From assembly GCF_003334815.1 (NCBI RefSeq), contig NZ_QOWO01000031.1: a stretch of DNA of 45,531 nt, one strand, 5' to 3'. The stretch is from Escherichia coli (GTDB lineage: Bacteria; Pseudomonadota; Gammaproteobacteria; Enterobacterales; Enterobacteriaceae). How positions within the stretch are numbered: position 1 is the first letter of the stretch; every line of letters starts with the position of its first letter. The notes beneath the pieces were generated by a model. That model ran no database searches and was not told the origin of the DNA. It worked only from the letters and a program-made list of their open reading frames with translations. Positions 45,241 through 45,531 of the stretch are shown here, piece after piece. The position numbers and the translations under genes are program-made.

Positions 45241-45462
45241 ATGAAAGTATCAGTTCCAGGCATGCCGGTTACACTTTTAAATATGAGCAAGAACGATATT
45301 TATAAGATGGTGAGCGGGGACAAGATGGACGTGAAGATGAATATCTTTCAACGCTTGTGGGAGACGTTACGCCATCTGTTCTGGTCAGATAAACAGACTG
45401 AGGCTTATAAACTTCTGTTCAATTTCGTGAATAACCAGACTGGCAACATCAACGTGTACTGA
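45241..45462 (+). CDS. Hypothetical small protein (73 aa) in an AT-rich region downstream of djlA; possibly the 5' remnant of a larger decayed gene
   Basis: ATG-initiated ORF MKVSVPGMPVTLLNMSKNDIYKMVSGDKMDVKMNIF… with no recognisable domain; AT-rich context suggests accessory or decaying DNA. Confidence 0.35.
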   Translation: MKVSVPGMPVTLLNMSKNDIYKMVSGDKMDVKMNIFQRLWETLRHLFWSDKQTEAYKLLFNFVNNQTGNINVY

Positions 45463-45531
45463 CCCCAAAAAGTTGGACAGTTAAACACGAGGCATATAGG
45501 TCTGATTCCGATATTCAATTGGAGTCAGACC

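Follow-up and report, generated by a model that had tools for sequence, protein, structure and literature searches.

Downstream of djlA, at the very end of the 45,531-nt stretch of Escherichia coli DNA analysed here (contig NZ_QOWO01000031.1 of assembly GCF_003334815.1; hereafter the window), a 73-residue open reading frame (ORF) is followed by an inverted repeat in AT-rich sequence, which raises the question whether this is a decaying accessory gene with a hairpin of its own or something else. Our analysis answers that small ORF and hairpin are one ordinary IS150 insertion into a pseudogene, met at the end of a contig. In the reading that we hold with considerable confidence, IS150 (IS3 family) has inserted in codon 72 of yabP so that the transposase gene opposes yabP, and the hairpin is an intrinsic terminator antisense to the transposase. 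So we have neither a new small gene in the ORF nor a host regulatory element in the hairpin; both come from the IS150 insertion. While IS150, yabP, EspY1 and IS-borne terminators as a kind are already known, what the conserved terminator adds to an ordinary insertion is modest and can be tested.

Searched by megablast against 5426 complete E. coli genomes, the region 44950-45531 splits in two. Its left part (44950-45454) is 100% identical to the djlA-yabP region of K-12 strains and several others (~97% in O157:H7) and its right part (45455-45531) is 100% identical to hundreds of loci annotated as 'IS3-like element IS150 family transposase'. In a four-way alignment, yabP gives way to IS150 between 45454 and 45455. 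This junction, in yabP codon 72, occurs in none of the 5426 complete genomes (0/5426), and the insertion is seen in draft assemblies only. An exact-protein look-up found the 73-aa product on two draft contigs, and the one of the two that we examined (CBDBYT010000040.1 of the independent NCBI assembly GCA_965212685.1, our L099; 45,629 nt) has the same junction and 133 nt of IS150 before it ends inside the IS. Abutting the junction, ACG at 45452-45454 is the predicted 3-bp target-site duplication, whose second copy would fall outside the window. Past the window end the element presumably continues as a complete IS150, although with the far junction outside the window a rearranged or partial IS150 may follow instead. 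That the window ends only 77 nt into the IS is explained by short-read assemblies breaking in repeated IS copies; contigs that always break off shortly after entering a repeated IS, at a set distance, are a signature of this kind of assembly, and the 77 nt may simply reflect a common assembler k-mer length.

Consistent with the junction, the ORF is a chimera. As the original prediction had it, a 73-aa frame ending at 45462 is present (45241-45462, plus strand, with an ATG start in the program-made ORF list). Its residues 1-71 equal K-12 YabP (71/71) and match O157:H7 EspY1 at 65 of 71 positions (about 92% identity, 6 differences); residues 72-73 (Val-Tyr) and the stop are without counterpart in YabP or EspY1. 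Because the sequence turns to IS150 at 45455, the ORF is therefore made up of 71 yabP codons followed by Val-Tyr-stop (gTG TAC TGA), with the yabP 5' fragment, an espY1 remnant, covering 45241-45454 (71 whole codons and the first base of codon 72) and the stop codon (45460-45462) deriving from the IS150 terminal inverted repeat. The earlier assumption that the end of the ORF is part of the accessory gene thus fails, since from 45455 on the sequence is the IS150 right end.

In K-12, the frame that starts at window position 45241 is yabP, 216 aa long, after which comes yabQ, and in O157:H7 a 245-aa product at this position is annotated as 'T3SS effector EspY1'. K-12 yabP/yabQ is a frameshifted, decayed remnant of the T3SS effector gene espY1, which agrees with the decaying accessory gene originally proposed. 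Like yabP of K-12 and espY1 of EHEC O157:H7, the ORF lies immediately downstream of djlA. Unlike them, the gene studied here is additionally truncated, the full-length 245-aa effector frame being cut by IS150 after codon 71, whereas K-12 yabP is already frameshifted in a region of 15-bp repeats relative to the 245-aa EspY1. These repeats form a run of GGTGCTACCCCGGAC-like tandem units in the 3' part of K-12 yabP (L002, 3870-3940) and mark where the K-12 frame leaves EspY1 and yabP/yabQ split. Between yabQ and rluA, K-12 also carries a fragment of an IS4/Tn5-family transposase gene. It had been considered that the ORF might be the intact start of a longer gene in another frame; an intact start of a longer gene it is, but of one that continues in the same frame and was cut by the IS. 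The earlier statement that no domain can be recognised is borne out, as profile scans of the 73-aa ORF, K-12 YabP and even full EspY1 against Pfam and NCBIfam gave nothing significant; the gene is nonetheless a known one, yabP.

The neighbourhood fits. The co-chaperone gene djlA (44131-44946, plus strand) aligns collinearly and at 100% identity with K-12 DH10B, whose annotation has djlA in the corresponding place, and the djlA gene call on the examined draft contig has DjlA_TM, TerB and DnaJ domains. Along the composition profile, GC is 0.49-0.57 in djlA and only 0.35-0.43 beyond 45000, with 0.35-0.40 from about 45000 in the djlA-yabP intergenic region (44947-45240). The AT-richness that had been noted after djlA is thus real, and is due to yabP being a decayed version of espY1. 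One sigma-70-like site was found in this intergenic region, no more than in shuffled sequence. It is the AT-rich setting, together with a terminator-like hairpin on the strand of the ORF, which could favour a free-standing decaying accessory gene whose own terminator or regulatory element in host DNA is the hairpin. To this we give next to no credence: the last 8 nt of the ORF and all that follows are 100% IS150, the same frame continues without a hairpin in K-12 and in more than 2000 genomes, and the hairpin is found at every IS150 copy, whatever the neighbourhood.

To the right of the junction, all 77 nt (45455-45531, transposase on the minus strand) are identical to annotated IS150 copies (77/77), terminal repeat, orfB 3' end and hairpin included. 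A complete IS150 is 1443 bp long and has orfA and orfB joined by a programmed -1 frameshift, the E. coli K-12 genes being insJ and insK. Our reference is a full copy in strain 146 (L001, 2002-3444) of 1443 bp, which begins with TGTACTG, ends with CAGTACA and has a 3-bp duplication (CTG) on its flanks. Compared with the left end of this copy, the right terminal inverted repeat in the window (TGTACTGACCCCAAAAAGTTGGAC, 45455-45478) matches at 18 of 24 positions and has the TG...CA termini that are typical of the IS3 family. Next to it, on the minus strand, lies the end of orfB/insK (45481-45531), which by the RefSeq annotation of the strain 146 copy and by translation comprises the last 16 codons and the stop (...GLTPIEYRNQTYMPRV*); the stop codon is at 45481-45483 and the 16 codons upstream of it are identical to InsK. 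On the examined draft contig a gene call with rve_2 matches the IS150 DDE transposase orfB. In host DNA beside the strain 146 copy (L001 3467-3550, minus strand) there is also a partial match to Rfam IS009 (74 bits, below the gathering score and cut at the end of the stretch), unrelated to the yabP/IS150 finding.

Within these last codons sits the hairpin. The inverted repeat with its 11-nt spacer is present as described, GGTCTGATTCC at 45499-45509 and GGAGTCAGACC at 45521-45531 forming 10 Watson-Crick pairs and one T-G pair, and it extends in the window to 14-nt arms (45499-45512 and 45518-45531) around a 5-nt loop. With the next base, which lies outside the window, the stem-loop (45498-45531, plus strand) reaches 15 pairs, including 6 G-C, with the same 5-nt loop; the last pairing base of the stem (T) and the U-tract (TTTTAATTT) come immediately past the window end. 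On the window plus strand, i.e. antisense to the transposase, the stem is followed by UUUUAAUUU, and both in the strain 146 copy and in the examined draft contig the U-tract TTTTAATTTCA stands directly after the stem. The hairpin lies wholly inside transposase codons, overlapping G-L-T-P-I-E-Y-R-N-Q-T, spans 45-79 nt from the right tip of the element and ends 15 nt before the transposase stop codon. Hence the idea of a terminator hairpin was half right: it behaves as a terminator on the plus strand, but belongs to the 3' end of the IS150 transposase gene and not to the gene of the ORF.

Taken alone, the 11-bp repeat is only mildly unusual: arms of 11 bp with at most one mismatch occur in 29 registers, spread over about 14 places of the 45.5-kb window, and 20 block shuffles average 6.5 registers. 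The full hairpin, however, goes well beyond what chance would give. The plus strand folds at -22.9 kcal/mol compared with -8.05 +/- 2.3 in 200 shuffles (z -6.4), of which none was as good, and the hairpin is the sole terminator-like site in the stretches subjected to the terminator scan. The opposite strand folds less stably (-16.9 kcal/mol for a 66-nt fragment, -16.0 for the hairpin window alone) because three G-U pairs turn into A-C mismatches. Neither in the window nor in the full IS150 copy did the hairpin match any Rfam 15 family at E <= 1. Since the repeat is within IS150 coding sequence, we rejected a REP/BIME-type extragenic palindrome. We also dropped an inward promoter in the right repeat that makes a dedicated antisense small RNA, as the sequence upstream of the hairpin has no acceptable -35/-10 pair.

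Evidence from living cells comes from MG1655, whose sole IS150 copy (not the copy in our window) shows an RNA 3' end at the hairpin. In the Term-seq data of Adams et al. 2021, this end, which is antisense to insK, maps to minus-strand position 3,721,992 within ...AGGTCTGATTCCGATATTCAATTGGAGTCAGACCTTTTAAT (PMC7815308, supplementary file 1), with average reads of 191,424, 365,502 and 282,496 in three growth conditions (PMC7815308), which is comparable to strong terminators of the same table, and it is not among the Rho-termination regions listed in that study (PMC7815308). The sequence that the table gives for this entry is the hairpin and, judging from how the table is laid out (the sgrS row served as a check), the 3' end falls at ...GACCTTTTAAT. 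It probably arises by termination, although Term-seq cannot tell termination from 3' trimming to a stable hairpin. Upstream of IS150 on that strand, MG1655 has glyQS and the promoter of hokA. Since the Term-seq table assigns no 3' end to glyS (PMC7815308), read-in from the glyQS/hokA side therefore probably ends at the IS150 terminator. The same study lists a Rho-termination region inside IS150 orfA (insJ) on the sense strand (3,720,745, plus; PMC7815308), so sense transcription through IS150 may be limited by Rho.

Our comparison of relatives shows that the hairpin lies at a conserved position across the IS150 group. Relatives were gathered by tblastn in plasmids and by a pattern scan of IMG/VR contigs and were anchored on the Ser/Thr-Pro codons, giving 48 distinct gap-free antisense sequences with 53-100% protein identity from plasmids of Enterobacteriaceae, Enterococcus, Bacillus and Burkholderia and from IMG/VR contigs. 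Under a 15-pair model, 85% of cells are paired in these 48 sequences compared with 71% in shuffled partners, and 0 of 500 shuffles are as high, although shuffle counts, like Fisher p-values, overstate independence among relatives that share a phylogeny. Both sides have changed in 11 of the 15 pairs, the covariation score is 0.399 as opposed to 0.163 in shuffles and at most 0.156 with partners slid by 1-3 columns, and RNAalifold independently recovers the same core helix. The helix is, in other words, kept up by compensatory changes. Not every member has it: a folding energy of -15 kcal/mol or lower is reached by 37 of the 48 relatives, 12 of 48 retain fewer than 12 of 15 pairs, and nine sequences have 10 or fewer (L004, L005, L007, L023, L038, L039, L075, L076, L095). 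With about a quarter of relatives lacking a good hairpin, it is not indispensable.

The covariation runs through codons. Gly GGA goes with Ser TCC (11 of the 48 sequences), GGC with Ala GCC (9), GGT with Thr ACC (7) and GGG with Pro CCC (3), while Leu CTG goes with Gln CAG (20), Leu TTG with Gln CAA (5), Met ATG with His CAT (7) and Tyr TAC with Val GTA (1). Synonymous choice in one arm therefore accompanies an amino-acid change in the other. That both arms partly encode conserved residues, and that shuffled partners are still 71% paired, could be taken to mean that the palindrome is a functionless chance by-product of encoding G-L-S-P-x-E-Y-R-x-Q; this seems hardly credible to us, as third-position and amino-acid-changing compensatory pairs are frequent, none of the 500 shuffles attains the observed values and an in vivo 3' end lies at the site. 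Moreover, three IS3-family members outside the group (L014, L015, L017; about 43-46% identity) keep SP-x-x-Y-R and have no hairpin at that place, so the protein motif does not force one. Among more distant IS3-family elements, L013 (ISLla3) and L016 (ISEfa10) have terminator-like hairpins with T-runs on the antisense strand close to the right end, though at other positions, in one case still in the ORF but displaced by about 10 nt and in the other beyond the stop codon, which hints that the terminator function recurs in other IS3-family lineages.

A palindrome within a transposable element could also act as DNA, and the subterminal place of this one (45-79 nt from the right tip), its conserved position across the group and the covariation, which is equally expected for a DNA hairpin, would suit a cruciform or single-strand hairpin that the transposase or a host factor uses in copy-out/paste-in transposition, for example in telling the two ends apart. 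We consider this quite improbable. The RNA 3' end in vivo lies exactly at the U-tract, the codon bias of the T-run (see below) would be left without explanation, there is no sequence-specific conserved motif beyond the protein requirement, and distant IS3-family members are either without the hairpin (L014, L015, L017) or have terminator-like hairpins at another place near the right end (L013, L016).

Which strand, then, acts? Watson-Crick covariation alone cannot distinguish the strands, and the sense strand folds too (-16.0 kcal/mol in IS150 and a mean of -15.8 in the 48 relatives). Together with a sense 3' end that the Term-seq table lists before the insK stop, at MG1655 3,722,036 on the plus strand (899 reads, in minimal medium only; PMC7815308), this leaves some room for selection on the sense strand, where the hairpin might stabilise transposase mRNA as a 3'-exonuclease barrier or might yield stop-less mRNAs that tmRNA-mediated degradation removes, thereby limiting transposition. 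This sense end lies 5 nt past the hairpin and upstream of the insK stop, corresponding to about 45494 on the window minus strand, and transposase mRNAs ending there would be without a stop codon. Such a role is nevertheless unlikely to us. The sense end has 899 reads in one condition as opposed to 191,000-365,000 in all three for the antisense end, albeit the two counts are not directly comparable since transposase mRNA is far less abundant. In 41 of 48 relatives the more stable fold is that of the antisense strand (mean -19.6 kcal/mol compared with -15.8 for the sense strand), and 82 G-U cells, which pair on the antisense strand only, stand against 40 A-C cells, which pair on the sense strand only (n = 48).

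The T-rich tail and its codon bias likewise make sense on the antisense strand only. Although a conserved Lys-Leu-Lys motif in part dictates the tail, Lys codons in the U-tract prefer AAA (63:13 compared with 719:390 in the gene body; p 0.001) and the Leu codon prefers xTA, i.e. TTA or CTA (33:12 compared with 353:799; p 1e-8), both p-values ignoring shared ancestry and hence overstating significance. Thus stability, G-U cells and codon bias all point to the strand antisense to the transposase.

Taken as an antisense terminator, the hairpin suggests a mechanism. Host transcription that enters an IS150-group element via the right end, antisense to the transposase, would stop after about 84 nt at a Rho-independent terminator inside the last transposase codons (predicted site ...CCUUUUAAU). 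The transposase gene would thereby be spared convergent transcription and antisense RNA, and IS150-group insertions would, depending on orientation, be polar on downstream host genes. In the strain studied here a yabP transcript, if its promoter is active, would end about 84 nt into the IS, just past the window. The selective benefit may be to insulate the transposase gene, and the DNA beyond the IS, from convergent host transcription.

Going further, the hairpin may be an undescribed module of the whole IS150 group: an antisense insulating terminator that makes polarity dependent on orientation, dictates C-terminal residues of the transposase and may give rise to stop-less sense mRNAs. In this wider proposal, the synonymous third base of the Gly codon would decide which of Ser, Ala, Thr and Pro stands four codons downstream of the conserved Tyr-Arg, and Leu or Met would pair with Gln or His. 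We put it forward tentatively, as a possibility with somewhat less than an even chance of being right in full. Apart from this wider proposal, our analysis shows a well-known IS with a terminator hidden antisense in its transposase coding sequence and probably active in vivo in K-12. Its conservation across Proteobacteria and Firmicutes by codon-level covariation is a clear case of RNA structure constraining protein sequence. The predicted orientation-dependent polarity of IS150-group insertions also bears on IS150 mutations in evolution experiments and in engineered strains.

Elsewhere in the window, two other features deserve mention. Positions 1-360 hold the hokC/mokC/sokC locus in a form that matches strains without IS186. 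K-12 carries IS186 next to hokC on the MG1655 map, so the source strain would not be MG1655, although its yabP is K-12-identical. At 28947-29040 a near-perfect palindrome, TTTCAATATTG-N13-CAATATTGAAA, is present twice side by side, 57 nt apart, and the two copies look like paired operator sites.

How does the IS150 terminator relate to what has been described? In the literature that we searched there is no description of this antisense hairpin; the original reports on IS150 (Schwartz 1988; Haas & Rak 2002) were outside that scope, and an older description may exist. The closest likeness is with IS-borne terminators or 'mobile attenuators' (Naville & Gautheret 2010, PMC2965389), where an intrinsic terminator inside the IS ends transcripts from host DNA as we propose here, and with the internal terminator of IS1 (Hubner, Iida & Arber 1987, cited in PMC12095673). 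In those described there, the terminator precedes the transposase gene or follows it in sense orientation (PMC2965389, PMC12095673). The IS150 terminator, unlike them, is on the antisense strand within the last transposase codons and is kept by codon-codon covariation. In IS10, fold-back of the left-end mRNA hides the ribosome-binding site of sense transcripts that read in from outside, whereas in IS150 it is antisense read-in that would be halted, at the right end and by termination. What IS150 would share with the protection of Tn10/IS10 from external promoters (Davis, Simons & Kleckner 1985, cited in PMC2965389) is that transposase expression is shielded from outside transcription.
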